A stretch of DNA of 21,361 nt, taken from the IMG/VR virus record IMGVR_UViG_2690316028_000007. One strand, written 5' to 3'. Position 1 is the first letter of the stretch. The number at the start of each line of letters is the position of its first letter. The DNA comes from a virus (taxonomy: Duplodnaviria > Heunggongvirae > Uroviricota > Caudoviricetes). A program made the translations under genes and the position numbers. Below, in pieces: positions 1 through 16,325 of this stretch. Below the pieces are notes generated by a model, which had not been told where the DNA came from, ran no database searches, and saw nothing but the letters and a program-made list of their open reading frames with translations.

Positions 1-41
1 CCTCTGACTGAGAGTTTACTCACTTAGCCGCGTGTCCACTA

Positions 42-305
42 TTGCTGGGTAAGATCACATCACGTAAAAATCACACGAATGTGCTGATGCATATACAGGG
101 GTATTTTAGTAATTACTTAAGTACACGCCAGCGTAAAGAGTTGAGCGAGGTTATACTTAACTATCGCTTTGGCACATTGCCTCTTCTTGCGCCGTTGACT
201 CTGCTGAAGCATTATCTGGGTGAGTATCCTAATGATTACTTGCTTACACAGAATTACTTCGATCCCTATCCGGAAGAACTGGCTCTAAGACTGATGGTGA
301 ATTAA
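42..305 (+). CDS. Hypothetical small protein; C-terminal motif LPLLAPLTLLKHYLGEYPNDYLL...PYPEELALR recalls DUF1722/YbgA-like C-terminal domains (from memory, unverified)
   Basis: ORF opens after an in-frame TGA at 9-11; first start is TTG at 42, first ATG at 87. No clear Shine-Dalgarno. Possibly a gene fragment. Confidence 0.3.
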   Translation: MLGKITSRKNHTNVLMHIQGYFSNYLSTRQRKELSEVILNYRFGTLPLLAPLTLLKHYLGEYPNDYLLTQNYFDPYPEELALRLMVN

Positions 306-710
306 CTGTATGCGATATCATCTGAAAGTGATGAGTTCCTGTATGCAGGATATTTACAATCGTAAAAACTACGCTATGATGCCCATAGTGTCAGTTTGTA
401 TAAAAATCCTGTTCACGCTAAAGAAAACATTGAGATGCAATTTAATGTTGGTAAACATACCAGCCCAAAAGATTTTATTCAATCTGTTTTTATATGAAGA
501 TATTTCAAGTGAATATTAAGAGCATATAATATTATTATTGCACGCAGCTATTATAATATAACAGATTAGTTTAATGATTTGTTTTTTGTGAGTTAAACAC
601 ATGGTTTTATAGTTGTGATGCAATGAGATTTTCCTTATTGTTGAACTGGCGAATATTGATTTTCCACCTATACTTACCTGGTGTAACCCCAATGATATCA
701 GGTGGATAAT

Positions 711-1424
711 ATGCCATACATATGTTCTATCATTTTGGTGTTGAACTCGTTTGGTGTCCGAATTGGTAAAGAAGATATTTTGTTTAAAAAAGGAAATGCT
801 GTCCTCATTGAATACAATTTAAAAGATCTTTTTTCGTCAATTACAGATCATCTAATGATCGTAGATGTTGAGGAGAAAACAGTTAATGATTTCTTTAAAA
901 ACTACACACTCTCACCTTTTTCTGTAAGAAGGTTTTATCCGTCATACTTGATAGTAGAATGTGAAGATTTTTCATTGTTAAAGAACTTGGTTGCATGCTT
1001 GAATTGTGATAGCAAAACCGTGGATGTAGTTAGAAATCAAATATCACTTGCATGTCTTGCTGTCTTATCTTCAGAGAAAATAGTGCAAAGTTTTTTGTTC
1101 GGAAGTCTTAATAGCTTAGGTTGTAAAGTTAAGGCTATTATTCACTCGGATATCTCAGCGTCATGGAGACTTTGTGATATATCTTCAAGATTATATATGA
1201 GCGAGAGTTTGTTAAAAAGAAAATTAAAAGACGAAGGATTATCGTTTAGTAAATTAATTCTTGAAGAACGAATGATGATGGCGCAAAGATTATTGATCTA
1301 CAGTAACCATACTGTCGGCAAGGTGGCGGGAATATGCGGGTATGACAATGCATCATATTTTGTAAGTGTTTTTAGAGGATATTTTGGTGTGCCTCCGCAC
1401 CAATATTTATCAAGATTTTCTTAG
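711..1424 (+). CDS. AraC/XylS-family transcriptional regulator, AppY/EnvY-like prophage moron
   Basis: C-terminal AraC-type HTH (GYDNASYFVSVFRGYFGVPPHQYL; SESLLKRKLKDEGLSF resembles AppY as I recall it). ATG at 711 is 6 nt after AGGTGG. Very AT-rich gene and flanks, own terminator downstream. Confidence 0.85.
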   Translation: MPYICSIILVLNSFGVRIGKEDILFKKGNAVLIEYNLKDLFSSITDHLMIVDVEEKTVNDFFKNYTLSPFSVRRFYPSYLIVECEDFSLLKNLVACLNCDSKTVDVVRNQISLACLAVLSSEKIVQSFLFGSLNSLGCKVKAIIHSDISASWRLCDISSRLYMSESLLKRKLKDEGLSFSKLILEERMMMAQRLLIYSNHTVGKVAGICGYDNASYFVSVFRGYFGVPPHQYLSRFS

Positions 1425-1492
1425 AAGATATGATGTGATGGCATTTTATAAAGTTATTTTTTGAAGTGTAAGATTATACGATATTTTTAGCT

Positions 1493-1524
1493 ACGCCAGA
1501 ATAATTGCTGGCGTTTTTCTTTTT
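1493..1524 (+). terminator. Rho-independent terminator downstream of the AraC-like gene (may also act as a tR'-like late-operon terminator)
   Basis: ACGCCAG / CTGGCGT 7-bp stem with 8-nt loop, followed by TTTTTCTTTTT. Confidence 0.6.
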
Positions 1525-1614
1525 GAATAGATGTTCGGGCCTTACGCTAATGTAACTTCTTTCCTTCTTCGAACCAAACCGTGTACACCATCCGTTATCT
1601 GCGGAGGTGAGGCT

Positions 1615-1830
1615 ATGAAATCCATGGATAAGTTAACAACGGGCATCGCCTACAGCACCTCTGCAGGCAGTGCTGGCTACTGGTTTTTACAGTTGCTCGA
1701 TAAAGTCACGCCCTCACAGTGGGCGGCAATAGGTGTATTGGGTAGTCTGGTATTTGGCATGCTGACGTATCTGACAAACCTTTATTTCAAGATTAAAGAA
1801 GACAGGCGTAAGGTTGCGAGAAGAGAGTAA
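1615..1830 (+). CDS. essQ: Class II holin (phage 21 S-type pinholin), 71 aa, with dual-start motif Met1-Lys-Ser-Met4
   Basis: [28 protein letters not shown]...[17 protein letters not shown] closely matches the phage 21 S / EssD-EssQ holin as I recall it. Strong SD GGAGGTGAGG upstream of ATG 1615. Second in-frame ATG at 1624. Confidence 0.9.
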
Positions 1831-1834
1831 TCCA

Positions 1835-2386
1835 ATGACTCAAGACTATGAACTGGTTGTGAAAGGAGTTCGCAATTTTGAGAATAAAGTGGCGGTAACT
1901 GTAGCCTTACGGGACAAAAAACACTTTGACGGTGAAATTTTTGACCTGGACATCTCGCTGGACCGTGTTGAAGGTGCCGCGCTGGAGTTTTATGAGGCAG
2001 CAGCCAGAAGGAGCATCAGACAGGTCTTCCTGGATGTTGCTGCCGGGTTATGTGAAGGGGATGAGCAGTCGTCGGAAAAGCGCCCCATAATTTTAGAGGC
2101 GCAGAATGTGTGGATAACCTACAAAGGAAAGCTACCGGGAAGAATTACTGGTTCTCTGAAGACGCCACCGACGGCATTGCGGTCAGAAAAAGATGATATT
2201 GAATCGCCCATTGAAAAACTGGAGGGCAGCGTCGCTGATCTGAATAAAAAATTGTCGGTGCTGATTCCTTCTGAAGATGAAAAAAAACGCCGCGATGAGC
2301 AGTTTGCGGCGTTTTACGATTATTGCATTGAAGTTACTCGCAGGAATTTTGTGAAGATTTTTGAGGAGGGTAAATCTCTTCAGTAA
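1835..2386 (+). CDS. Hypothetical 183-aa protein inserted between holin and endolysin (possibly YdfR/DUF1327-like; unverified)
   Basis: ATG at 1835 lies 5 nt after the holin stop, preceded by AAGAGAG. Charged, non-membrane protein. Same strand as the lysis genes. Confidence 0.6.
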   Translation: MTQDYELVVKGVRNFENKVAVTVALRDKKHFDGEIFDLDISLDRVEGAALEFYEAAARRSIRQVFLDVAAGLCEGDEQSSEKRPIILEAQNVWITYKGKLPGRITGSLKTPPTALRSEKDDIESPIEKLEGSVADLNKKLSVLIPSEDEKKRRDEQFAAFYDYCIEVTRRNFVKIFEEGKSLQ

Positions 2387-2594
2387 GCTTATTGGCGGAC
2401 GCTGCAATTAATTCAGGAAGGTCCGCAAGGTCATCTGTCAGTGGATATGATGAAAAATCGGCGGCAGTTCTGTTAAGAAGCGCTTTAACTAATTCCTTTT
2501 CCTTCTCCGGCAACAAGTTGATTAGAGCTACGACTGCTTGCCTGAGTGCGATTAAATCAGCAAAAGTTTGTTTTGGTAGATTTGTGTAATCCAT
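2334..2594 (-). CDS. Hypothetical acidic 86-aa protein, antisense to the late operon; 3' end overlaps the preceding ORF by 53 bp
   Basis: ATG at 2594-2592 on the minus strand, preceded by AGG-containing CACAGAGGCGACT. Protein-like composition (LPEKEKELVKALLNRTAADF). No family recognised. Confidence 0.4.
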   Translation of the reverse strand: MDYTNLPKQTFADLIALRQAVVALINLLPEKEKELVKALLNRTAADFSSYPLTDDLADLPELIAASANKLTEEIYPPQKSSQNSCE

Positions 2595-2707
2595 AGTCGC
2601 CTCTGTGTTTATCAGATTGACATCCTCCTCCCGCCAGTGCCCATCACTGGTGAGGTAAGATTTAACATATCCGGGGATTTGAAGCCGATAAATCCTGATA
2701 AATATCC

Positions 2708-3735
<1,028 letters not shown>

Positions 3736-3986
3736 ATTAATATTAAATCGGATTATTTTTAGCGCTGAATGTGAAATTTAAATAAAAAGGACTCTTCCAT
3801 GAGTCAAAATCCTTGAAATCTTAAGGGTAAGATAAAAGGTCATTAGACAGAATGACACGTTTTATTAATAAATAAAGCTATTGTTTCATTCGTGTGTTTT
3901 TCTTTACAAAAGTAATCCTTGCTATGGTTGGTTAATCATGCGTTAATGGTGTTCTGGTTTGTTACAAAATTATCTGAAGCAGTCAT

Positions 3987-3995
3987 TGTTATAAT
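3987..3995 (+). promoter_or_regulatory. Candidate extended -10 element (TGtTATAAT) upstream of cspI
   Basis: TGTTATAAT read directly at 3987-3995, about 100 nt upstream of the cspI start. No good -35 found; csp genes usually have longer 5' UTRs, so the real promoter may lie further upstream. Confidence 0.3.
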
Positions 3996-4098
3996 TTTAT
4001 TATTTGTACCTCTTGAGATTTCCTTGTTGGTTTTTCTCTCTGATATTTTTTTTCGGACCATTCTGCCCAAGGGCTAACTTCTTCAAAAGGTAATAATG

Positions 4099-4311
4099 AT
4101 GTCTAACAAAATGACTGGTTTAGTGAAATGGTTTAACCCTGAAAAAGGTTTTGGTTTCATCACGCCGAAAGATGGTAGCAAAGATGTGTTTGTCCATTTC
4201 TCAGCTATTCAGAGCAACGATTTCAAAACGTTAACTGAGAATCAGGAAGTCGAATTTGGTATTGAGAACGGACCTAAAGGCCCCGCGGCTGTTCATGTTG
4301 TGGCACTTTGA
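4099..4311 (+). CDS. cspI: CspA-family cold-shock protein (70 aa)
   Basis: [38 protein letters not shown]... carries the canonical cold-shock RNP motifs. AAGG upstream. Tandem ATGs at 4096 and 4099. Long AT-rich leader. Adjacent to gnsB as in Qin. Confidence 0.9.
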
Positions 4312-4510
4312 GGTAGAAAATATTACAAACCATATTCACTTTAGATGCCCGTGTTGCCATGGTTCTCAGTATAGAACATCATCTTTTGATGTTTCTGACA
4401 GGAATCCTTTCGGGGCAAAATGTATCTTTTGTAAATCAATGATGATTACATTTGATAATATTTCACAATACTTAAATGTTAGCCGTCTGTCGTTAGATTT
4501 AAGAAAGTGA
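4295..4510 (+). CDS. Candidate zinc-ribbon small protein (CPCC...CIFC) between cspI and its terminator; start uncertain
   Basis: ORF contains [31 protein letters not shown] (CxxC-17-CxxC). The only in-frame ATG (4295) overlaps the cspI 3' end and has a poor SD. Lies upstream of the terminator at 4516-4538, so it would be co-transcribed with cspI. Confidence 0.3.
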
Positions 4511-4515
4511 AAATG

Positions 4516-4538
4516 AAGGCTCCTTCGGGAGCTTTTTT
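4516..4538 (+). terminator. Rho-independent terminator with UUCG tetraloop
   Basis: AAGGCTCC-TTCG-GGAGCTTT stem followed by TTTTTT. Confidence 0.65.
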
Positions 4539-4582
4539 GCTTAGTGTCTAGTCGATGGATACTCACATATTACGGTAACATT

Positions 4583-4813
4583 ATGAAAAAAATAATAGTT
4601 TTTTTTAACTCTGAACCAGCAATGGTAGTGCCAGTGATGACCGGAGTTAACACCATCATGCGTGAATATCCAAATGGCGAAACAACACACCTCACTGTAA
4701 TGGCTGCAGGGTTTCCATCTCTGACCGGAGATCATAAAGTCATTTATGTAGCAGCGGATCGACATGTAACTTCAGAAGAAATTCTGGAAGCAGCAATGAG
4801 ACTCTTGAATTGA
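4583..4813 (+). CDS. Hypothetical small protein (76 aa from ATG 4583; a GTG at 4544 is also possible)
   Basis: ORF MKKIIVFFNSEPAMVVPVMTGVNTIMREYPNGETTHLTVMAAG... Weak SD. Starts right after a terminator, so expression is uncertain. Could be the ynfN-like gene expected between cspI and gnsB. Confidence 0.35.
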   Translation: MKKIIVFFNSEPAMVVPVMTGVNTIMREYPNGETTHLTVMAAGFPSLTGDHKVIYVAADRHVTSEEILEAAMRLLN

Positions 4814-4985
4814 TTTGATTCTAATGCATTGATAATAAATGATAATCATCTTTATCTGTTTGTGTGAAATTTAGACCGTCGTATGTTGATTATTGCGATG
4901 TTTCATCTTATCTTTTATACGTTTGCTCCATATAATTGACACTACTGTGTACCAGGAAAGTCATAACAGACTAAAAGAGGAAATG

Positions 4986-5159
4986 ATGAACATTGAAGAG
5001 TTAAAAACAAAAACAGAAGCAGATATTTCTGAATATATAACAAAAAAAATCATTGAGCTTAAGAAAAAGACCGGGAAAGAAGTTACCAGTATCCAGTTTA
5101 CTGCACGGGAAAAAATGACTGGTCTTGAAAGCTATGATATCAAGATTGATTTAATCTAG
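4986..5159 (+). CDS. gnsB: GnsA/GnsB-family small protein (57 aa)
   Basis: MNIEELKTKTEADISEYITKKIIELKKKTGKEVTSIQFTAREKMTGLESYDIKIDLI closely resembles GnsA/GnsB as I recall them. Length 57 aa. An extra ATG at 4983 is possible. Confidence 0.85.
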   Translation: MNIEELKTKTEADISEYITKKIIELKKKTGKEVTSIQFTAREKMTGLESYDIKIDLI

Positions 5160-5224
5160 TCTGTTTATAGTATTAGCATCAATTTCTCATCAGATGCTAT
5201 TCAACAATACAAATTACCCATAAA

Positions 5225-5248
5225 CCTCGTTTTTACGGGGTTTTGTTA
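5225..5248 (+). terminator. Probable Rho-independent terminator downstream of gnsB
   Basis: CCTCG-TTTTTA-CGGGG (one G-U pair) followed by TTTTGTTATATTT. Confidence 0.45.
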
Positions 5249-5454
5249 TATTTAAACATTACCGAATAGGTATAAATCTCGATTGTCGATGGTATTGGTT
5301 GTGTGACAATACCTAATCTTTCCGGTATGCGTGAAGAGAATACAAACGACAGATTATGTAAGGGAAACGCGCTGAATCTTTCACTCTTTCATGCTGAGTG
5401 ATTTGACGTTATATTTTTAGCCGTAAGTGAAGAGCAAACGCATGGAGCGACAAA

Positions 5455-5661
5455 ATGCATAAAGATCAATACACTGATGCCCCCTCCCAGGAGCAGGTTC
5501 GTGTAAAAACTATGCTTAATAGCACCATTTCGATGGGTTACCCGGATGTTGTAATTGCATGTATAGAACATCAAGTGTCTCTGGAAGCATTCAGGGCAAT
5601 TGAGGCCGCGTTAGTAAAGCACGATAAGAATACGAAGGATTATTCCCTGGTGGTTGACTGA
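5455..5661 (+). CDS. Hypothetical 68-aa protein (position corresponds to ydfO/ynfO of Qin; possibly truncated)
   Basis: ATG at 5455 with GGAG 8 nt upstream. Stops in all three frames shortly after 5661, so it is not a simple frameshift of a longer gene. Confidence 0.5.
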
Positions 5662-5999
5662 TCACCATAACTGCTAACCATTCTGACCATTTCACAAGTG
5701 ACAGAGTCAATATCGTATTCTGTCACTGTCAGGCTAATACAGCAATGCAATTCAACTACAGCAATGCCTCGTATTTAGGTGAATTTACAATATCGTCCAG
5801 TTCGGATGCCGGCTGCATTTCTGAAGATAAGGCATTTCGGTTCTCGTATTTTCCCCTCATGCTCGTCAGTCCTGCGCGTAGTAAGAAACAGGACACTCAC
5901 ACTAATTTGTGTGGGCATGCAGTGATGTCCTTCTGAATTATCCCCATGCCATTATGTAAAGCTCTGTTACAGATGCTCGTCACGGTTGTCAGGCTGTCG

Positions 6000-6120
6000 G
6001 GTCCTCCCAGTGAGGGGCCCTGCCACGGGGCGGGAGCGTCGCGGAAAAAGGCTAGTTTTTGAAATTTTATTCGTCATCACCACTACTGTAATTGATTGGT
6101 ATTACAGTGGTTTTATTTTT
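6000..6120. other. Lambda-like cos site (cosN plus start of cosB) upstream of the Nu1-like gene
   Basis: ACG GGGCGGGAGCGT CGCGGAAAAAGG...GAAATTTTATTCGTCATCAC aligns with the remembered lambda end ACG GGGCGGCGACCT CGCGGGTTTTCG...GAAAATTTTCCG...TTCGTCATAAC. Lies about 190 bp upstream of the small terminase start, as in lambda. Confidence 0.55.
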
Positions 6121-6213
6121 ATGGTGTCGATTCTGATTGTTTTTTGTTCATCGCTAACACCGTTTGCCTAAAGTTGTTCGCAAGATGCATGTTTAAAACA
6201 TTCTGGAGCGGGT

Positions 6214-6708
6214 ATGGATCGAGAGTTAAAAAATCTGACGCTGAATATCAGTCAACTGGCGGCATTGTCAGGTGTACATCGCCAGACTGCTGCGGCAAGG
6301 CTGCAAAATCTACCCGTTGCAGGGGGGCATGAAAGCAACCTCAAGCTTTATCGGGTGGTTGATATTGTGTCGGCATTTCTGGCATTACCACCGCCGGTTG
6401 CAGAAGGCGAAATGGACGCGCATGAGCGCAAAGCCTGGTATCAGTCTGAACGTGAGCGTCTTAAGTTCGAACAGGAAACGGCACAACTCATTCCGGCCAG
6501 TGATGTCAGACGGGAGTTTGCCATCTGGGCAAAAGCGGTCGTGCAGGTGCTGGAGACATTACCGGATATTCTTGAACGTGACTGCGGTCTGCAGCCTGCC
6601 GCTGTGAGCCGTGTTCAGTCCATTATTGATGATCTGCGCGATCAGATAGCCCTGCGGGTGACTGAAGCAGGTGCGGATGATGAGGAGGAATTACAGCAGG
6701 AGGAGTAA
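6214..6708 (+). CDS. nohQ: Terminase small subunit (Nu1-like DNA-packaging protein)
   Basis: N-terminal HTH-like LTLNISQLAALSGVHRQTAAARLQ. GGAG 7 nt upstream. Stop overlaps the next start (TAATG). Position immediately after cos. Confidence 0.85.
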   Translation: MDRELKNLTLNISQLAALSGVHRQTAAARLQNLPVAGGHESNLKLYRVVDIVSAFLALPPPVAEGEMDAHERKAWYQSERERLKFEQETAQLIPASDVRREFAIWAKAVVQVLETLPDILERDCGLQPAAVSRVQSIIDDLRDQIALRVTEAGADDEEELQQEE

Positions 6709-7412
6709 TGCTGAATCAGGAAACCGCAAAGGCAGCACGAACCGATTCAGGTTATATCCTTCGCGCACCGAGACGAATGCGGGTTGCTGATGCCGTTGCT
6801 CAGTATATGCGGGTGCCCATGGGGGCAGGGAACTCAGTCCCGTGGGATCCGCTGGTGGCACCGTATGTTATTGAGCCTATGAACTGCCTGGCCTCGCGTG
6901 AATACGACGCAGTGATATTTGTTGGCCCGGCACGAACCGGCAAGACTATCGGCCTGATTGACGGCTGGGTGATTTACAACGTGATTTGCGATCCTGCGGA
7001 TATGCTGATCATTCAGATGACAGAGGAAAAAGCCCGCGAACACTCCAAAAAACGACTCGCCAGAACGTTTCGCGTCAGCCCGGAAGTGGTCAGTCGCCTG
7101 AGTCCGAACAAAAATGACAACAACGTTTATGACAGAACATTCCTTGCTGGCAACTACCTGAAAATCGGCTGGCCGTCAGTCAATATCATGTCCTCATCAG
7201 ATTATAAATGCGTCGCGCTGACGGATTATGACCGTTTTCCGGAAGATATTGATGGCGAGGGGGATGCCTTCTCTCTTGCCTCAAAACGTACCACCACATT
7301 TATGTCCAGCGGTATGACGCTGGTGGAGAGTTCCCCCGCTGGCCATGCAGATCCCGGCGTTTCGTCAGAAACTGAGCGACGGCTGGTACCAGGTACGCAT
7401 TGCCGGGCGTGA
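6708..7412 (+). pseudogene. Terminase large subunit, N-terminal ATPase fragment (Walker A GPARTGKT), truncated at a deletion junction near 7320-7345
   Basis: Translationally coupled to nohQ. P-loop motif VIFVGPARTGKT. The ORF runs into out-of-frame tail-gene sequence and ends after 234 codons, whereas intact large terminases are about 600-640 aa. Confidence 0.7.
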
Positions 7413-7857
7413 TGCAGGTGAAACCGAATTGTCTGCCCGTCTTAATGAGCCGCTGGCAAATGGTGCCGTGATCCACATCGTGCCGCGTCTGGCGGGAGCT
7501 AAAAGTGGCGGTGTGTTTCAGGTGGTGCTGGGGGCGGCGCTGATTGCGGTGGCATGGTGGAACCCTGTGGGCTGGCTGGGTGCCGCGGCTGTATCGGGCA
7601 TGTATGCGGCAGGGGCCAGTATGATCCTGGGCGGAGTGGCGCAGATGCTGGCACCGAAAGCCAGGACGCCCACGGCAGCAAGTACAGATAACGGCAAACA
7701 GAACACCTATTTCTCCTCACTGGATAACATGGTTGCCCAGGGCAATGTTCTGCCTGTTCTGTACGGGGAAATGCGCGTGGGGTCACGCGTGGTTTCTCAG
7801 GAGATCAGCACGGCAGACGAAGGGGACGGTGGTCAGGTTGTGGTGATTGGTCGCTGA
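7345..7857 (+). pseudogene. C-terminal fragment of lambda tail assembly protein I
   Basis: The tail ...LAPKARTP...DNGKQNTYFSSLDNMVAQGNVLPVLYGEMRVGSRVVSQEISTADEGDGGQVVVIGR matches the remembered lambda gpI C-terminus. Frame opens only at 7318, in a different frame from the terminase fragment. Confidence 0.75.
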
Positions 7858-7875
7858 TGCAAAATGTTTTATGTG

Positions 7876-7903
7876 AAACCGCCTGCGGGCGGTTTTGTCG
7901 TTT
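7876..7903 (+). terminator. Terminator-like hairpin between the I fragment and the tail-fibre gene
   Basis: AAACCGCC-TGCG-GGCGGTTTT followed by GTCGTTT. Confidence 0.45.
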
Positions 7904-7917
7904 ATGGAGCGTGAGGA

Positions 7918-10893
7918 ATGGGTAAAGGCAGCAGTAAGGGGCATACCCCGCGCGAAGCGAAGGACAACCTGAAATCCACGCAGCTGCTGAGTGTGATTGA
8001 TGCCATCAGCGAAGGGCCGGTTGAAGGTCCGGTGGATGGATTAAAAAGCGTGCTGCTGAACAGTACGCCGGTGCTGGACAGTGAGGGGAATACCAATATA
8101 TCCGGCGTCACGGTGGTGTTCCGGGCAGGTGAGCAGGAGCAGACTCCGCCGGAGGGGTTTGAATCCTCCGGCTCCGAGACGGTGCTGGGTACGGAAGTGA
8201 AATATGACACGCCGATCACCCGCACCATTACGTCGGCAAACATCGACCGTCTGCGCTTTACCTTCGGTGTACAGGCACTGGTGGAAACCACCTCAAAGGG
8301 TGACAGGAATCCGTCGGAAGTCCGCCTGCTGGTTCAGATACAGCGTAATGGTGGCTGGGTGACGGAAAAAGACATCACCATTAAGGGCAAAACCACCTCG
8401 CAGTATCTGGCCTCGGTGGTGGTGGATAACCTGCCACCGCGCCCGTTTAATATCCGGATGCGCAGAATGACGCCGGACAGCACCACAGACCAGCTGCAGA
8501 ACAAAACGCTCTGGTCGTCATACACCGAAATCATCGATGTGAAACAGAGCTACCCGAACACGGCACTGGTCGGCGTGCAGGTGGATTCGGAGCAGTTCGG
8601 CAGCCAGCAGGTGAGCCGTAATTATCATCTTCGCGGGCGTATTCTGCAGGTGCCGTCGAATTATAACCCGCAGACGCGGCAATACAGCGGTATCTGGGAC
8701 GGAACGTTTAAACCGGCATACAGCAACAACATGGCCTGGTGTCTGTGGGATATGCTGACCCATCCACGCTACGGCATGGGGAAACGTCTTGGTGCGGCGG
8801 ATGTGGACAAATGGGCGCTGTATGTCATCGGCCAGTACTGCGATCAGTCAGTACCGGACGGCTTTGGCGGCACGGAGCCGCGCATCACCTGTAATGCATA
8901 CCTGACCACACAGCGCAAGGCGTGGGATGTGCTCAGTGATTTCTGCTCGGCGATGCGCTGTATGCCGGTATGGAACGGGCAGACGCTGACGTTCGTGCAG
9001 GACCGACCGTCGGATAAGGTGTGGACCTATAACCGCAGTAATGTGGTGATGCCGGATGATGGCGCGCCGTTCCGCTACAGTTTCAGCGCCCTGAAAGACC
9101 GCCATAATGCCGTTGAGGTGAACTGGATTGACCCGGATAACGGCTGGGAGACGGCGACAGAGCTTGTTGAAGATACGCAGGCCATTGCCCGTTACGGTCG
9201 TAACGTCACGAAGATGGATGCCTTTGGCTGTACCAGCCGGGGGCAGGCGCACCGCGCCGGGCTGTGGCTGATTAAAACGGAACTGCTGGAAACGCAGACC
9301 GTGGACTTCAGCGTGGGTGCGGAAGGGCTTCGCCATGTACCGGGGGATGTCATTGAAATCTGCGATGATGACTATGCGGGTATCAGCACCGGCGGGCGCG
9401 TGCTGGCGGTGAACAGCCAGACCCGGACGCTGACGCTCGACCGTGAAATCACGCTGCCATCCTCCGGTACCACGCTGATAAGCCTGGTTGACGGTCAGGG
9501 TAATCCGGTCAGCGTGGAGGTCCAGTCCGTCACCGACGGCGTGAAGGTGAAAGTGAGCCGTGTTCCTGACGGCGTTGCAGAATACAGCGTGTGGGGGCTG
9601 AAGCTGCCGACGCTGCGCCAGCGCCTGTTCCGCTGCGTGAGTATCCGTGAGAACGATGACGGCACGTATGCCATCACCGCCGTGCAGCATGTACCTTCTG
9701 CCCGTAAGGTGAATGGTAAGGCGCTTTCAGCGGATATAACACTGACGCCGAAAGATATTGGTACGCTTAACTCAACAACAATGTCATTCAGCGGTGGTGC
9801 TGGTTGGTTCAAATTAGCAACGGTAACCATGCCACAGGCGAGTTCTGTTGTTTCAATTACGTTGATTGGTGGCGCGGGATTTAACGTGGGGTCACCTCAA
9901 CAGGCAGGTATATCTGAACTTGTTTTGCGTGCAGGTAATGGTAATCCGAAGGGGATTACTGGTGCTTTATGGCAGCGCACATCGACAGGGTTTACAAATT
10001 TTGCCTGGGTCAATACATCTGGTGATACTTACGATATTTACGTTGCAATCGGAAATTATGCGACTGGTGTAAATATTCAATGGGATTATACCAGTAATGC
10101 CAGCGTGACGATTCATACGTCACCAGCATATTCTGCTAATAAGCCGGAAGGGTTAACGGACGGTACAGTTTATTCACTCTATACGCCATCAGAGCAGTTT
10201 TATCCGCCTGGCGCACCAATCCCGTGGCCATCAGATACCGTTCCGTCTGGCTATGCCCTGATGCAGGGGCAGACTTTTGACAAATCTGCATACCCGAAAC
10301 TTGCAGCCGCTTATCCGTCAGCCGTGATCCCTGATATGCGTGGCTGGACGATTAAGGGCAAACCCGCCAGTGGTCGTGCCGTATTGTCTCAGGAACAGGA
10401 CGGCATTAAATCGCACACCCACAGCGCCAGCGCATCCAGTACGGATTTGGGGACGAAAAACACATCGTCGTTTGATTACGGAACCAAATCCACGAATAAC
10501 ACCGGGGCGCATACCCATAGTATTAGCGGGACTGCAAATAGTGCCGGTGCGCACCAACACAAGAGTTCCGGTGCATTTGGTGGCACGAACACGAGCATTT
10601 TCCCTAATGGTTATACCGCGATTTTAAATCTAAGCGCGGGGATTATGAGCACAACAAGCGGTAGTGGCCAGACTCGTAATGCAGGGAAGACATCATCAGA
10701 TGGTGCTCATACCCACTCGCTGTCCGGCACTGCTGCAAGCGCAGGCGCACATGCACATACTGTCGGTATTGGTGCTCATACGCACTCCGTTGCGATTGGT
10801 TCACATGGACACACCATCACCGTTAACGCTGCTGGTAACGCGGAAAACACCGTCAAAAACATCGCATTTAACTATATTGTGAGGCTTGCATAA
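7918..10893 (+). CDS. stfQ: Chimeric tail fibre: lambda J (host-specificity protein) N-terminal about 597 aa fused in frame to a side-tail-fibre C-terminus with tail-collar-like region and HxH repeats
   Basis: N-terminus [34 protein letters not shown]... matches lambda J as remembered, up to ...AITAVQHVP (about nt 9700). Thereafter the protein diverges and GC content drops. C-terminus has GAHTHS/GAHAHT/GSHGHT repeats and ends [25 protein letters not shown] upstream of the ATG. Confidence 0.85.
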
Positions 10894-11468
10894 TGGCATT
10901 CAGAATGAGTGAACAACCACAGACCATAAAAATTTATAATCTGCTGGCCGGAACTAATGAATTTATTGGTGAAGGTGACGCATATATTCCGCCTCATACA
11001 GGTCTGCCAGCAAACAGTACCGATATTGCACCGCCAGATATTCCGGCAGGCTTCGTGGCTGTTTTCAACAGTGATGAGGCATCGTGGCATCTCGTTGAAG
11101 ATCATCGGGGAAAAACCGTCTATGACGTGGCTTCCGGCGACGCGTTATTTATTTCTGAACTCGGTCCGTTACCGGAAAATGTTACCTGGTTATCGCCGGA
11201 AGGGGAGTTTCAGAAGTGGAACGGCACAGCCTGGGTGAAGGATACGGAAGCAGAAAAACTGTTCCGGATCCGGGAGGCGGAAGAAACAAAAAACAACCTG
11301 ATGCAGGTAGCCAGTGAGCATATTGCGCCGCTTCAGGATGCTGCAGATCTGGAAATTGCAACGGAGGAAGAAATCTCGTTGCTGGAAGCATGGAAAAAGT
11401 ATCGGGTATTGCTGAACCGTGTTGATACGTCAACTGCACAGGATATTGAATGGCCAGCACTGCCGTAG
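10893..11468 (+). CDS. tfaQ: Tail fibre assembly chaperone (lambda Tfa-like)
   Basis: [54 protein letters not shown]... is nearly identical to lambda Tfa as remembered. Start overlaps the stf stop (TAATG). Confidence 0.9.
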
Positions 11469-11565
11469 GGTAAAACATATAAATTCTATAATTAGATGTA
11501 TCTTTCCATTTACGGCAAGGAAGGGGGCTTGGAACACGTAAAGCATCTCACACCGAGATTATTTT

Positions 11566-12156
11566 TTATATGTCAGGTGTCTGAAGTTTTGCTTTGGCTC
11601 TTAAAATGGTTTGCCGCGAGGTTTTGAATTCCCGGGCAATGGCACTTATACTTACACCTGACTTAATTCGTTCGAATACCACCTGTTTCTGTTCTTCATT
11701 TAACACAGGTGGTCGACCAAAACGTTTCCCTGCGCCGCGGGCTCTTACTATCCCGGAATGAGTGCGTTCAAGTAAAAGGTCTCGTTCAAATTCAGCGACT
11801 GCTGAAATTACTTGCATCATCATTTTTCCTGTTGGACTGGTCAGGTCAATGCCACCCAATGCTAAGCAATGCACTCTGATACCTGTTTCGGTCAGTTGTT
11901 CCACTGTTTTCCTGATATCCATTGCATTACAACCAAGGCGATCCAGTTTTGTCACAATCAATTGATCACCACATTTCAGGCGAGCAAGCAACCGGTTAAA
12001 ACCAGGACGCTCACTGGTTGCTGCTGAGCCGCTAATGTGTTCTTCGATTATTTGCTGAGGTTTGATTTTAAAACCTGCACTTTCGATTTCCCGGCGTTGA
12101 TTTTCGGTGGTCTGATCCAGCGTTGATATCCGACAGTAAGCAAAAATTCGAGACAT
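11566..12156 (-). CDS. pinQ: Serine recombinase of the resolvase/invertase family (Pin-like DNA invertase)
   Basis: N-terminal catalytic motif [11 protein letters not shown]-terminal HTH. 196 aa. Position next to tfa as in Qin/Rac. Confidence 0.9.
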
Positions 12157-12473
12157 AGTGAGACTCTATTCGAAATTGGTGTTCATATCATAATGCATCT
12201 CAGAAAATAATTATGATTATTTTTGTGCATATTTGTATGTACACGTTCGAAAATAAACGAATGCGTATGCAACCCCGTAATTTTTGGTGAGACCCAAAAT
12301 CGATTTTGTGAAAAATGGCTTTAACTCGGTTTGTTTTTCGAGTTCCGGGCGGACTCAAGGAAGAAGAATAGTGTTGCGTGTTATTTTAACCAGATTTCAA
12401 GTTGTTTGGACGTGGAAAAGTGGAGCAAAATGTTGTTAAAGTGGAAAAATGATAAAAAAGTAAGTTTATTATA

Positions 12474-12707
12474 TTACATTTTACCATTTAAATTTTGGTT
12501 GTCTTTAAGAACTGATATCGCTGTTTGTAATAATTCTTTGTTATCCAGCCATGATTTTTTCTTTATGTTTCCTTCAATGTAATCAAGCAATGTTCTGGTA
12601 TTAATAGGTCTTCCCTGTTTTGCTACTTCCACTACAGCATCCCCTAGGATAATTCTTACTTCAGGAAGCTGCGCAGGGAACCACTTTAGGGTGTCTTTTG
12701 ATTTCAT
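12474..12707 (-). CDS. ydfK: YdfK/YnaE-family small prophage protein (77 aa), reported as cold-shock induced
   Basis: MKSKDTLKWFPAQLPEVRIILGDAVVEVAKQGRPINTRTLLDYIEGNIKKKSW... ATG at 12707 preceded by AAGGA. The longer 88-aa start has no SD. Long AT-rich upstream region. Confidence 0.85.
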   Translation of the reverse strand: MKSKDTLKWFPAQLPEVRIILGDAVVEVAKQGRPINTRTLLDYIEGNIKKKSWLDNKELLQTAISVLKDNQNLNGKM

Positions 12708-13207
12708 GAAGATATTCCTTAAAATATTATTGATTTTCATTGCGATATTGTATGTCTGATTCAGGATATGTTGACTTATACATCGGTTTTGTCTGGGTTA
12801 TTGGATATGCCAATCCCTAATTTTATTAGGGCATGACTAAAAATGCTGAATATGATAAGGAGAGAAGTGATTATCAGTATGCTGTTCATATAGCCTCGAA
12901 TTAGTAATGTGTTATATATGATATAGTTGACAATTTTTATCTTGGGTGTTTTTAAAGTTCGTAGATAAACATTGTCGTTTCAGGTATACAGGAATGCTAG
13001 CAGGTGGCAGCAAAAATCAGGCGGTTTATGGCGCAAGCTGAAGCGGCAACTGCAAACTATCTTATGCAGAGACTCTACACGGATTGGGTTTAAAAGTATA
13101 CATAGATAACAGTTTTTATCTGAAAAAGAAAAATATCAAGGTGATATAGCCTATATGCCTTTGATGCGGAGGAATGACTGTGATGGGAGTGATGTATCTG
13201 AATAGTT

Positions 13208-13247
13208 GAAAAACCGCAGACACGCCTTATGCAAGAACGTGCTGCGG
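13208..13247 (-). terminator. Candidate minus-strand Rho-independent terminator about 250 bp inside the prophage end (possible tI/sib analogue)
   Basis: CCGCAG(A)CACG ... CGTG-CTGCGG imperfect 10-bp stem with 13-nt loop, followed on the minus strand by TTTTTCAAC. Confidence 0.4.
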
Positions 13248-13492
13248 TTGGCTGGTAAATTTTTCGATAGTGTGAGTATTGAATGATTTCCAGCCGTTCT
13301 TGATTTTACGCATAAATCCATGAAAAAACTACTTATCTGTTGGGGAGTTTTTTTGGGGCATATATGGGACAGAAATAGGCCCCAGATAGACACTGAGATC
13401 GAACTTAGGATGCTTTTTAAAAAATGCAACTATCTGAAAAAACCTAGAAAACGCCAAGGAAACCACAGGATGGGAAAAAACACCTGTGAATT

Positions 13493-14776
13493 ATGGATTT
13501 CCAGTTATATTCGCTCGGCGCAGCGTTAGTGTTTCATGAAATATTTTTTCCTGAATCATCAACGGCAATGGCGTTAATTCTGGCAATGGGAACCTATGGT
13601 GCAGGTTATGTGGCGCGTATTGTCGGAGCATTTATTTTCGGCAAAATGGGCGACAGAATAGGGCGTAAAAAAGTGCTCTTTATTACCATCACCATGATGG
13701 GGATCTGTACCACCTTAATTGGAGTGTTACCGACCTATGCACAGATTGGTGTTTTTGCCCCCATCTTGCTGGTGACGCTGCGTATTATTCAGGGATTGGG
13801 TGCAGGTGCGGAAATTTCCGGTGCCGGTACGATGCTGGCGGAATATGCGCCAAAAGGTAAGCGCGGAATTATCTCCTCATTTGTGGCTATGGGAACTAAC
13901 TGCGGAACCTTAAGCGCAACGGCAATCTGGGCCTTTATGTTCTTCATTCTCAGTAAAGAGGAACTGCTGGCGTGGGGATGGCGTATACCGTTCCTGGCGA
14001 GCGTTGTCGTGATGGTCTTTGCTATCTGGTTACGTATGAATCTGAAAGAAAGCCCGGTCTTTGAGAAGGTTAACGACAGCAACCAACCGACAGCAAAACC
14101 TGCACCTGCTGGTAGCATGTTCCAGAGCAAATCCTTCTGGCTGGCAACAGGGCTGCGTTTTGGTCAGGCGGGTAACTCCGGTTTAATTCAGACTTTCCTT
14201 GCAGGCTATTTAGTACAGACGTTATTGTTTAACAAAGCAATTCCAACAGATGCATTGATGATCAGTTCGATTCTCGGCTTTATGACCATTCCGTTCCTTG
14301 GTTGGTTATCCGATAAAATTGGTCGCCGGATCCCGTATATTATTATGAATACCTCTGCGATTGTGCTGGCGTGGCCAATGCTTTCTATCATCGTAGATAA
14401 AAGCTATGCCCCGAGCACCATTATGGTTGCACTGATTGTGATTCATAACTGTGCGGTGCTGGGATTATTTGCTCTGGAAAACATTACCATGGCAGAAATG
14501 TTCGGCTGTAAAAACCGCTTTACCCGGATGGCTATTTCAAAAGAAATTGGTGGTCTTATCGCTTCCGGTTTTGGTCCTATCCTGGCGGGTATTTTCTGCA
14601 CCATGACGGAATCCTGGTATCCGATCGCCATTATGATCATGGCATATTCAGTAATTGGTTTAATCTCTGCGCTGAAAATGCCAGAGGTGAAAGACCGTGA
14701 TTTAAGTGCGCTGGAAGACGCTGCGGAAGATCAACCGCGTGTTGTAAGAGCTGCGCAACCTTCCAGAAGTCTGTAA
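13493..14776 (+). CDS. ydfJ: MFS transporter of the metabolite:H+ symporter family (ProP/ShiA-like); reading frame opens only at 13490, consistent with loss of about 40 N-terminal residues at the prophage junction
   Basis: 427-aa ORF with MFS signatures (GKMGDRIGRKKVL, 12-TM-like hydrophobic profile). An in-frame TGA sits immediately upstream at 13487-13489. Starts at a motif (DFQLY) that in relatives lies about 45 aa into the protein. Confidence 0.8.
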   Translation: MDFQLYSLGAALVFHEIFFPESSTAMALILAMGTYGAGYVARIVGAFIFGKMGDRIGRKKVLFITITMMGICTTLIGVLPTYAQIGVFAPILLVTLRIIQGLGAGAEISGAGTMLAEYAPKGKRGIISSFVAMGTNCGTLSATAIWAFMFFILSKEELLAWGWRIPFLASVVVMVFAIWLRMNLKESPVFEKVNDSNQPTAKPAPAGSMFQSKSFWLATGLRFGQAGNSGLIQTFLAGYLVQTLLFNKAIPTDALMISSILGFMTIPFLGWLSDKIGRRIPYIIMNTSAIVLAWPMLSIIVDKSYAPSTIMVALIVIHNCAVLGLFALENITMAEMFGCKNRFTRMAISKEIGGLIASGFGPILAGIFCTMTESWYPIAIMIMAYSVIGLISALKMPEVKDRDLSALEDAAEDQPRVVRAAQPSRSL

Positions 14777-14787
14777 ATCCTCAATCC

Positions 14788-14813
14788 CTTCTCTTACCGG
14801 AGAGGGGATTTTT
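14788..14813 (+). terminator. Probable Rho-independent terminator after ydfJ
   Basis: CCTTCTCT-TACCGG-AGAGGGG stem (with G-U pairs) followed by ATTTTTATT. Confidence 0.5.
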
Positions 14814-14864
14814 ATTCATATAACAAAACATATAGCTTGCCATATTTATATTTAAGGAATTGTT

Positions 14865-16325
14865 ATGGGAAATAATTTGTTATCAGCAAAAGCGACACTC
14901 CCTGTTTATGATCGTAATAACCTGGCCCCAAGAATTATTCATTTAGGCTTTGGTGCATTTCACCGTGCGCATCAGGGCGTGTATGCCGATATTCTTGCTA
15001 CAGAACATTTCAGTGACTGGGGATATTATGAGGTCAACTTAATCGGCGGCGAACAGCAAATTGCCGATTTACAACAGCAAGATAATCTTTATACCGTTGC
15101 GGAAATGTCGGCCGATGCGTGGACGGCTCGCGTCGTTGGCGTCGTTAAAAAAGCCTTGCACGTACAGATGGATGGCTTAGAAACCGTGTTGGCTGCGATG
15201 TGTGAACCGCAAATCGCGATTGTCTCTCTGACAATCACCGAAAAAGGGTATTTCCACTCTCCGGCGACCGGACAGTTAATGCTCGATCACCCGATGGTCG
15301 CTGCCGACGTGCAAAATCCCCACCAGCCGAAAACAGCAACAGGAGTGATTGTTGAGGCGCTGGCTCGCCGTAAAGCGGCAGGACTTCCCGCATTTACCGT
15401 CATGTCATGTGACAACATGCCAGAAAACGGTCATGTTATGCGTGACGTTGTCACTTCCTACGCGCAAGCCGTTGATGAAAAACTGGCACAATGGATCGAA
15501 GATAACGTGACTTTCCCATCAACAATGGTGGACCGTATTGTGCCCGCAGTGACAGAGGATACGCTGGCGAAAATCGAACAACTTACCGGTGTGCGCGATC
15601 CTGCGGGCGTTGCCTGTGAACCTTTCCGCCAGTGGGTAATAGAAGATAACTTTGTTGCCGGACGTCCGGAATGGGAAAAAGCGGGAGCCGAACTGGTTAG
15701 CGATGTGCTGCCTTATGAAGAGATGAAGTTGCGCATGCTCAACGGCAGTCATTCATTCCTGGCGTATCTGGGGTATCTTGCTGGATATCAGCACATTAAT
15801 GACTGCATGGAAGATGAACATTATCGTTATGCGGCGTATGGCTTGATGTTGCAGGAACAAGCGCCGACGCTGAAAGTGCAGGGCGTTGATTTGCAAGATT
15901 ACGCTAACCGATTAATTGAACGCTATAGCAACCCGGCGTTACGCCATCGAACCTGGCAGATTGCGATGGATGGCAGCCAGAAATTGCCACAGCGGATGTT
16001 GGATTCTGTTCGCTGGCATCTGGCGCATGACAGCAAGTTCGAGCTGCTGGCACTGGGCGTCGCGGGTTGGATGCGTTATGTCGGTGGTGTTGATGAACAG
16101 GGAAATCCGATTGAAATCAGTGACCCACTGTTACCTGTTATTCAGAAGGCTGTACAAAGTAGTGCCGAAGGGAAAGCGCGCGTCCAGTCATTGCTGGCGA
16201 TTAAGGCGATTTTTGGTGATGATTTGCCAGATAATAGCTTGTTTACTGCAAAAGTGACGGAAGCGTACTTGTCTTTATTAGCGCATGGTGCGAAAGCGAC
16301 CGTGGCGAAATATTCCGTGAATTAA
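14865..16325 (+). CDS. ydfI: Mannitol-dehydrogenase-family oxidoreductase (D-mannonate/fructuronate oxidoreductase-like)
   Basis: 486 aa. N-terminal Rossmann motif [15 protein letters not shown] typical of the long-chain mannitol dehydrogenase family. AAGGA SD. Synteny with ydfJ and ydfZ. Confidence 0.9.

Follow-up and report, generated by a model that had tools for sequence, protein, structure and literature searches.

Ramisetty and Sudhakari reported site-specific integration of the Qin prophage at the ydfJ 5' end, whereby the promoter and the 28 N-terminal codons of the gene are lost, and Qin was found in 48% of 638 strains (PMC6379469). According to Archer et al. (PMC3032704), Qin also sits in ydfJ in strains W, K-12, B, and Crooks, and Nakamura et al. 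(2021) determined the attP of a ydfJ prophage by PCR and defined its att sequence as 18- or 19-bp (PMC8112680). The DNA analyzed here is a stretch of 21,361 nt from a Caudoviricetes record (IMGVR_UViG_2690316028_000007), referred to as the window, in which the original prediction had placed a prophage/chromosome junction inside ydfJ. Our data indicated that window positions 13487-13504 are almost certainly the attR of a defective Qin-type lambdoid prophage ("PPydfJ") integrated in ydfJ. The Qin-type junction in ydfJ is real and ordinary, and it is already known from published work.

In the prophage-free strains LR-17-1 and 2015C-3121, ydfJ encodes 455 aa, starts 57 nt past rspB, and lies in the gene order rspA-rspB-ydfJ-ydfI-ydfZ-rspR-ydfG-dcp. 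Intact YdfJ begins with the 28 residues MTIEKHERSTKDLVKAAVSGWLGTALEF and continues with MDFQLYSL..., which is the start of an open reading frame at the right side of the window (13493-14776, + strand; taken from the ORF list and its translation). This frame was assigned to ydfJ', the 3' remnant (codons 29-455) of an MHS-family MFS transporter gene. Alignment of the window with the intact allele, anchored on the Met29 codon, revealed 1271 identical positions out of 1286 (98.8%) over 13491-14776, with 15 synonymous and no non-synonymous differences in ydfJ', and identity dropped to 31/100 in the 100 nt left of 13491 (about 30%, the random level). Twenty-eight codons are missing from ydfJ in the window; ATG 13493, which lies inside the att core, corresponds to Met29 of the native gene and is not a new start. 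The original prediction had positioned this start motif about 45 residues into the protein, a value that the intact 455-aa YdfJ corrects to 28. Its claim of integration into the 5' part of ydfJ was borne out, as identity to the intact allele switches at 13487/13491 and phage genes lie to the left. In a megablast search with window positions 12900-14900, all 5426 complete E. coli genomes were matched, and the match classes started at window 12900, 13214, 13228, 13354, or 13487; in genomes without the prophage, matches began exactly at 13487. The 5' fragment of ydfJ was not found inside the window.

The att sequence of attR, delimited by alignments of attB, attL, and attR and by the megablast breakpoints at 13487, is TGAATTATGGATTTCCAG (13487-13504, + strand), a phage-type copy of 18 bp that includes the frame-closing TGA. 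In bacterial attB, the copy TGAATTTATGGATTTCCAG has 19 bp, the phage-type copy being one T shorter. With this 1-nt indel, the stretch common to all copies is TGAATT(T)ATGGATTTCCAG (18/19 bp), and the exact common core in the alignment of the three sites is the 11-bp TTATGGATTTC (13491-13501, + strand), which contains ATG 13493 and within which strand exchange must fall. The two half-matches of a query spanning attB overlapped by 16-19 nt, consistent with an 18/19-bp shared att sequence. In length, the 18 bp in the window and the 19 bp in attB agree with the "18- or 19-bp" of PMC8112680. The TGA closes the frame because the phage-derived half of att has one T fewer than attB, so that ..CTT GAA TTT ATG.. 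in the intact gene becomes ..CTG TGA ATT ATG.. at the junction.

The reciprocal junction was observed in a strain with a closely related prophage, 027_SK3. There, rspB is followed by ydfJ codons 1-28 with the core (position 5314 of the 027_SK3 locus, L003), adjoining an integrase gene whose product has an Arm-DNA-binding domain, and by an excisionase gene. The order then continues with ydfD, dicB, ydfU, Q, the lysis genes, cspI, gnsB, tfaQ, pinQ, ydfK, ynfT, and finally ydfJ'. The two ydfJ pieces, 5' fragment and 3' remnant, overlap by the att core and together restore the intact gene exactly. The missing N-terminal piece was accordingly located where the original prediction had expected it, at the int end and outside the window, lying in 027_SK3 beside rspB, int, and xis; the anticipated att core repeat of 10-20 bp was also present at both ends, measuring 11 bp as an exact match or 18/19 bp when a 1-nt indel is allowed. 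The attL partner is known from related genomes only. Since the window contains no 5' fragment and only a single copy of the core, the int end of its own prophage lies past the left edge.

Immediately left of the core, the window contains phage DNA (13353-13490, + strand) that is kept among otherwise different ydfJ prophages and represents the P arm of the att site. A four-way alignment of the window, K-12 Qin, the NleG-carrying prophage of EHEC strain 106, and the prophage of strain MB1 revealed that the four sequences can be aligned between GGGGCATATATGGGACA and the core (the last ~140 bp) and are divergent further left, and that the P-arm block TGGGGCATATATGGGACA is invariant across prophage types. 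Judged from sequence conservation, the ~140 bp are what would be expected of a functional P arm working with one shared integrase. The motif TGGGGCA occurs in three P-arm copies in the window (13340-13371, + strand), namely, TTGGGGAG (13340), TTGGGGCA (13353), and TATGGGAC (13364), spaced 11-13 bp apart. Two further tandem copies, 10 bp apart, were found in the P' arm of 027_SK3 at core +70/+80 (L003 5384-5401), inside the 3' end of int. Across three prophage types, the motif does not vary. We propose these TGGGGCA repeats as candidate arm-type integrase-binding sites. A 69-aa ORF (13320-13529, + strand; MKKLLICWGVFLG...) begins in the P arm and crosses the att core into ydfJ'. It was considered as a phage-host fusion and rejected, as its start region was unconserved in other ydfJ prophages and it reads ydfJ out of frame; this ORF is probably spurious.

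The window sequence at 13480-13499 is acacctgTGAattATGgatt, in which TGA 13487-13489 and ATG 13493-13495 lie in one frame. Sequence, translation, and SD check agreed with the earlier description of a frame closed by the TGA and reopened at ATG 13493 without an SD: none of GGAG, GAGG, AGGA, or AAGG was present in the 25 nt before the ATG. Several stops close the ydfJ' frame upstream of this codon, so ydfJ' is not fused to a phage ORF. The ORF (13493-14776) encodes 427 aa with Pfam matches to MFS_1 (2.6e-37) and Sugar_tr. The MFS_1 match begins at profile position 2 in intact YdfJ and at position 33 in the remnant, where the first ~31 positions are absent. The 28 lost codons, whose product ends in ...SGWLGTALEF directly before MDF, encode a positively charged cytoplasmic N-terminus (K5, R8, K11, and K15) and the start of helix 1. 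A full MFS fold was not recovered for the remnant, as helix 1 and the N-terminal G-x-x-x-E-x-x-D-F-type segment are incomplete. The window sequence is a YdfJ fragment and not a complete member of the MHS family of MFS transporters, and in K-12 and further strains the corresponding 1284 nt carry the RefSeq label "incomplete; missing N-terminus." A PDB sequence search with intact YdfJ, aimed at placing helix 1, returned nothing at E<=1e-5, and a Kyte-Doolittle hydropathy profile with a 19-residue window left helix 1 unresolved; the loss of the first part of helix 1 was placed by Pfam profile coordinates instead of hydropathy or structure.

The ydfJ prophage junction was found in 3169 of the 5426 complete E. 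coli genomes (58%) with a 280-nt query across the junction (at least 80% covered), and the uninterrupted rspB-ydfJ junction in 2011 of them (37%) with a 601-nt query across that site (at least 80% covered). This occupancy indicates that ydfJ is a major lambdoid integration hot spot. Three otherwise different prophages, K-12 Qin and those of EHEC strain 106 and MB1, have the breakpoint and the last ~140 bp in common. In the EHEC strain 106 prophage, three NleG/DUF1076 effector genes and a DinI-like gene adjoin attR (L005 1927-3927). NleG effector genes are thus present at the ydfJ attR of EHEC-type genomes, which makes this att site an entry point for T3SS effector cargo.

These data also bear on two other explanations of the discontinuity. 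If ydfJ naturally encoded 427 aa from ATG 13493 onward, the discontinuity would be a variable intergenic region with no gene disrupted, and the ORF would be expected, as observed, to be open from Met29 to the native stop with a product identical to the matching part of intact alleles. Against this, the 455-aa gene is present in 2011 genomes with the extra 28 codons in frame and contiguous with rspB, the same 28 codons lie at the other prophage end in lysogens, and the MFS_1 match begins at position 2 in the long form versus position 33 in the short form, which is without an SD. The prophage-free orthologues to which the original prediction proposed to align the gene are 455 aa long in both LR-17-1 and 2015C-3121, ruling out a naturally 427-aa gene and leaving this explanation with practically no probability. 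Truncation by illegitimate deletion or IS-mediated rearrangement at the edge of a prophage integrated elsewhere is just as improbable, a chance so small as to be negligible. The prophage of the window is indeed heavily rearranged inside (a truncated terminase and a gpJ/tail-fibre chimera), and IS elements are present in related copies, but no ydfJ sequence has been lost, the two fragments rebuilding the gene without a gap. Moreover, a nucleotide-identical breakpoint is used by different prophages in 3169 genomes, and the 5' fragment directly adjoins int and xis, as in lambda attL. Site-specific integration into ydfJ is the reading that these observations favor.

The expression of the remnant was assessed on several lines. 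A sigma-70 promoter/terminator scan of 12500-13700 yielded no more sites than shuffled sequences, and no + strand promoter-like site was found within about 750 nt upstream of ydfJ'; an SD was likewise absent from the 600 nt before the remnant. A gSELEX study put two "constitutive" RpoD promoters in the K-12 ydfI/ydfK spacer (PMC3946193). The predicted ydfI promoter (ATGCCA-17-TTTAAG) maps at 14678-14706 (+ strand), inside the 3' end of ydfJ', and the second at 13895-13868 (- strand), antisense within ydfJ' and facing ydfK. Both were considered as promoters of ydfJ' and rejected; lying inside ydfJ', they have no bearing on its expression. The position of the first one suggests that ydfI, which encodes a mannitol-dehydrogenase-family oxidoreductase downstream of ydfJ' (14865-16325, + strand; Pfam Mannitol_dh and Mannitol_dh_C, and RefSeq annotation of homologous loci), may still be expressed. 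In K-12 RNA-seq, ydfJ was among the differentially expressed genes after DicC induction (PMC11430063), which implies that some ydfJ transcript exists.

This change in transcript level would fit continued production of the remnant as a transporter with a shortened N-terminus, the gene having been rewired and not killed; so would the frame that is open in all six truncated alleles examined (6/6), with very few amino-acid changes. Such a scenario, with a phage-side or internal promoter and either leaderless-like translation or a downstream Met start, is improbable in our view. When related lineages are compared (L003 and L004 versus L001; K-12 versus L001), the truncated copy is separated from the intact one by 0-1 nt, a distance that leaves no time for decay and implies that allele divergence predates insertion and that insertions are recent or recurrent. 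For the same reason, the 15/0 count of synonymous to non-synonymous differences was rejected as a sign of maintenance. Among eight alleles compared, there were four singleton amino-acid changes, three of them on truncated copies, including L289P, which also speaks against a maintained protein. No upstream promoter-like site or SD is available, the phage neighbours ydfK and ynfT face the opposite way, and the protein has lost its positively charged N-terminus together with the initial portion of MFS helix 1. Collectively, the evidence points to the 427-codon frame being a promoterless, SD-less pseudogene remnant that is probably non-functional, and the frame appears to have stayed open because the insertion happened recently compared with the divergence of the alleles, rather than through maintenance.

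A defective prophage occupies the left 13.5 kb of the window. Its parts comprise an AraC-family cargo gene, P21-type holin, lysozyme, and Rz (DUF2514) genes, cspI with a thermoregulator leader, the tail-fibre assembly gene tfaQ, the serine invertase gene pinQ, ydfK, ynfT, and the P arm of attP; Pfam domains on the phage side include Caudo_TAP and Resolvase as well as tail, lysis, and terminase domains. The genes tfaQ-pinQ-ydfK-ynfT adjoin ydfJ' and are colinear with annotated K-12 Qin and related loci (98-99% identity). The cold-shock-induced prophage gene ydfK (12474-12740, - strand; assigned by colinearity with K-12 Qin and related prophages and the ORF list) and ynfT just to its right are the final prophage genes before the junction and point away from ydfJ'. 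The whole window was not matched by any complete E. coli genome, the best coverage being 85%.

The region 6214-10893 contains a DUF1441 (NohA-like) gene and, after it, a 234-aa terminase gpA fragment with the ATPase domain only (6708-7412), a tail protein I fragment (7345-7857), and a 991-aa ORF (7918-10893) that joins the N-terminal domains of gpJ to a tail-fibre collar domain. Head genes and most tail genes are absent, a deletion pattern unlike that of K-12 Qin. The pinQ-type serine invertase gene is intact (Resolvase and HTH_7; 11566-12156, - strand). No convincing inverted-repeat crossover sites were found around a tail-fibre segment (7800-12300), the only pairs obtained being one of 22 nt (82% complementarity) and one of 16 nt (81%). 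With no invertible substrate in evidence, the invertase appears to be an orphan. Two gathering-level Rfam matches were obtained on the + strand: a cspA thermoregulator leader (109.8 bits; 3941-4357) ahead of the prophage cold-shock gene cspI, and the sRNA candidate family IS009 (220.9 bits; 11236-11434) inside the 3' part of tfaQ. The AraC-family regulator gene (702-1424, + strand; HTH_18/HTH_AraC, 240 aa) is uninterrupted prophage cargo in the window, whereas an IS3 element interrupts it in the nearest complete genomes (027_SK3 and I4).

The proposed mechanism is site-specific recombination by a tyrosine integrase into an 18/19-bp attB within ydfJ codons 26-32, the catalysis of integration by the integrase being inferred. 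Window positions 1-13490 are prophage, and the chromosome extends from the core rightward with ydfJ codons 29-455, ydfI, ydfZ, rspR, ydfG, and dcp. Integration shifts the first 28 ydfJ codons to the integrase end, beside rspB, so that the int-end junction in the source genome is expected to consist of ydfJ codons 1-28 ending in ...GCGCTTGAATTTATGGATTTC after rspB; it also closes the frame one codon before Met29 through the phage att copy. Excision would restore attB, GCGCTTGAATTTATGGATTTCCAG, and give a circular attP, CACCTGTGAATTATGGATTTCAAGAG. The spacing of 57 nt between rspB and ydfJ suggests that ydfJ-ydfI are probably co-transcribed with rspAB in intact strains, where rspAB-ydfJ-ydfI probably form one transcription unit. 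Integration parts ydfJ'-ydfI from rspAB and from the rspAB promoter, which lie directly upstream in uninterrupted strains.

For annotation, the 427-aa ORF should be recorded as a pseudogene remnant comprising ydfJ codons 29-455, and the attR of a Qin-type prophage should be marked at 13487-13504. The junction sets 13490 as the right-hand prophage boundary in the window and explains the detachment of ydfJ'-ydfI from rspAB. Beyond correct annotation, it has little significance of its own, apart from placing ydfJ among the busiest lambdoid integration hot spots of E. coli, which bears on EHEC effector-carrying prophages and inter-prophage recombination. A more far-reaching view is that the ydfJ att site is a widespread reversible switch of a putative rspAB-ydfJ-ydfI unit for sugar-acid uptake and catabolism, or that the remnant is expressed with residual or altered transport. 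We regard this as unlikely, though with a small share of probability; if true, integration and excision of PPydfJ would switch the rspAB-ydfJ-ydfI unit between an off and an on state. The literature was also searched for a defined substrate of RspA, YdfJ, or YdfI (gulonate/mannonate), without a usable result.

Among known systems, K-12 Qin (Kim) is like the window in its nucleotide-identical junction, its 98.8% identity over 12900-14900, and its loss of 28 codons, and its flank has the same order of tail-fibre remnant, tfaQ, pinQ, ydfK, ynfT, ydfJ', and ydfI. The two differ in that the window carries the 234-aa terminase fragment, the gpI fragment, and the 991-aa chimera of gpJ N-terminus and tail fibre, whereas K-12 has nohA and a short tail-protein remnant; in addition, the ydfJ' allele of the window differs at 16 synonymous sites, and its AraC-family cargo gene is uninterrupted. 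The EHEC/EPEC PPydfJ prophages (lambda-like, with nleG/nleC; PMC8112680) have attB, core, and breakpoint as in the window, with the last ~140 bp of the P arm ~89% identical. The attR flank of EHEC strain 106 carries NleG-family effectors and a DinI-like gene, whereas that of the window instead carries pinQ, ydfK, and ynfT, without T3SS effector genes.

The arrangement also resembles that of lambda, with int and xis beside attL (B-O-P') and the tail-fibre/accessory end beside attR (P-O-B'), a short core flanked by a ~140-bp conserved P arm, a motif repeated in both arms, and a P' arm that enters the 3' end of int. In contrast to lambda, the core and arm sequences are different, and the target in ydfJ lies within coding sequence whereas that of lambda lies between gal and bio. 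Site-specific integration inside a host gene is likewise found in K-12 for Rac in ttcA and e14 in icd (PMC6379469). Both of these phages bring a substitute gene end, which keeps the icd product complete in the case of e14 and leaves the ttcA product altered only at its N-terminus in the case of Rac. Unlike e14 and Rac, the ydfJ phages supply no replacement 5' end, and their att copy brings an in-frame TGA.
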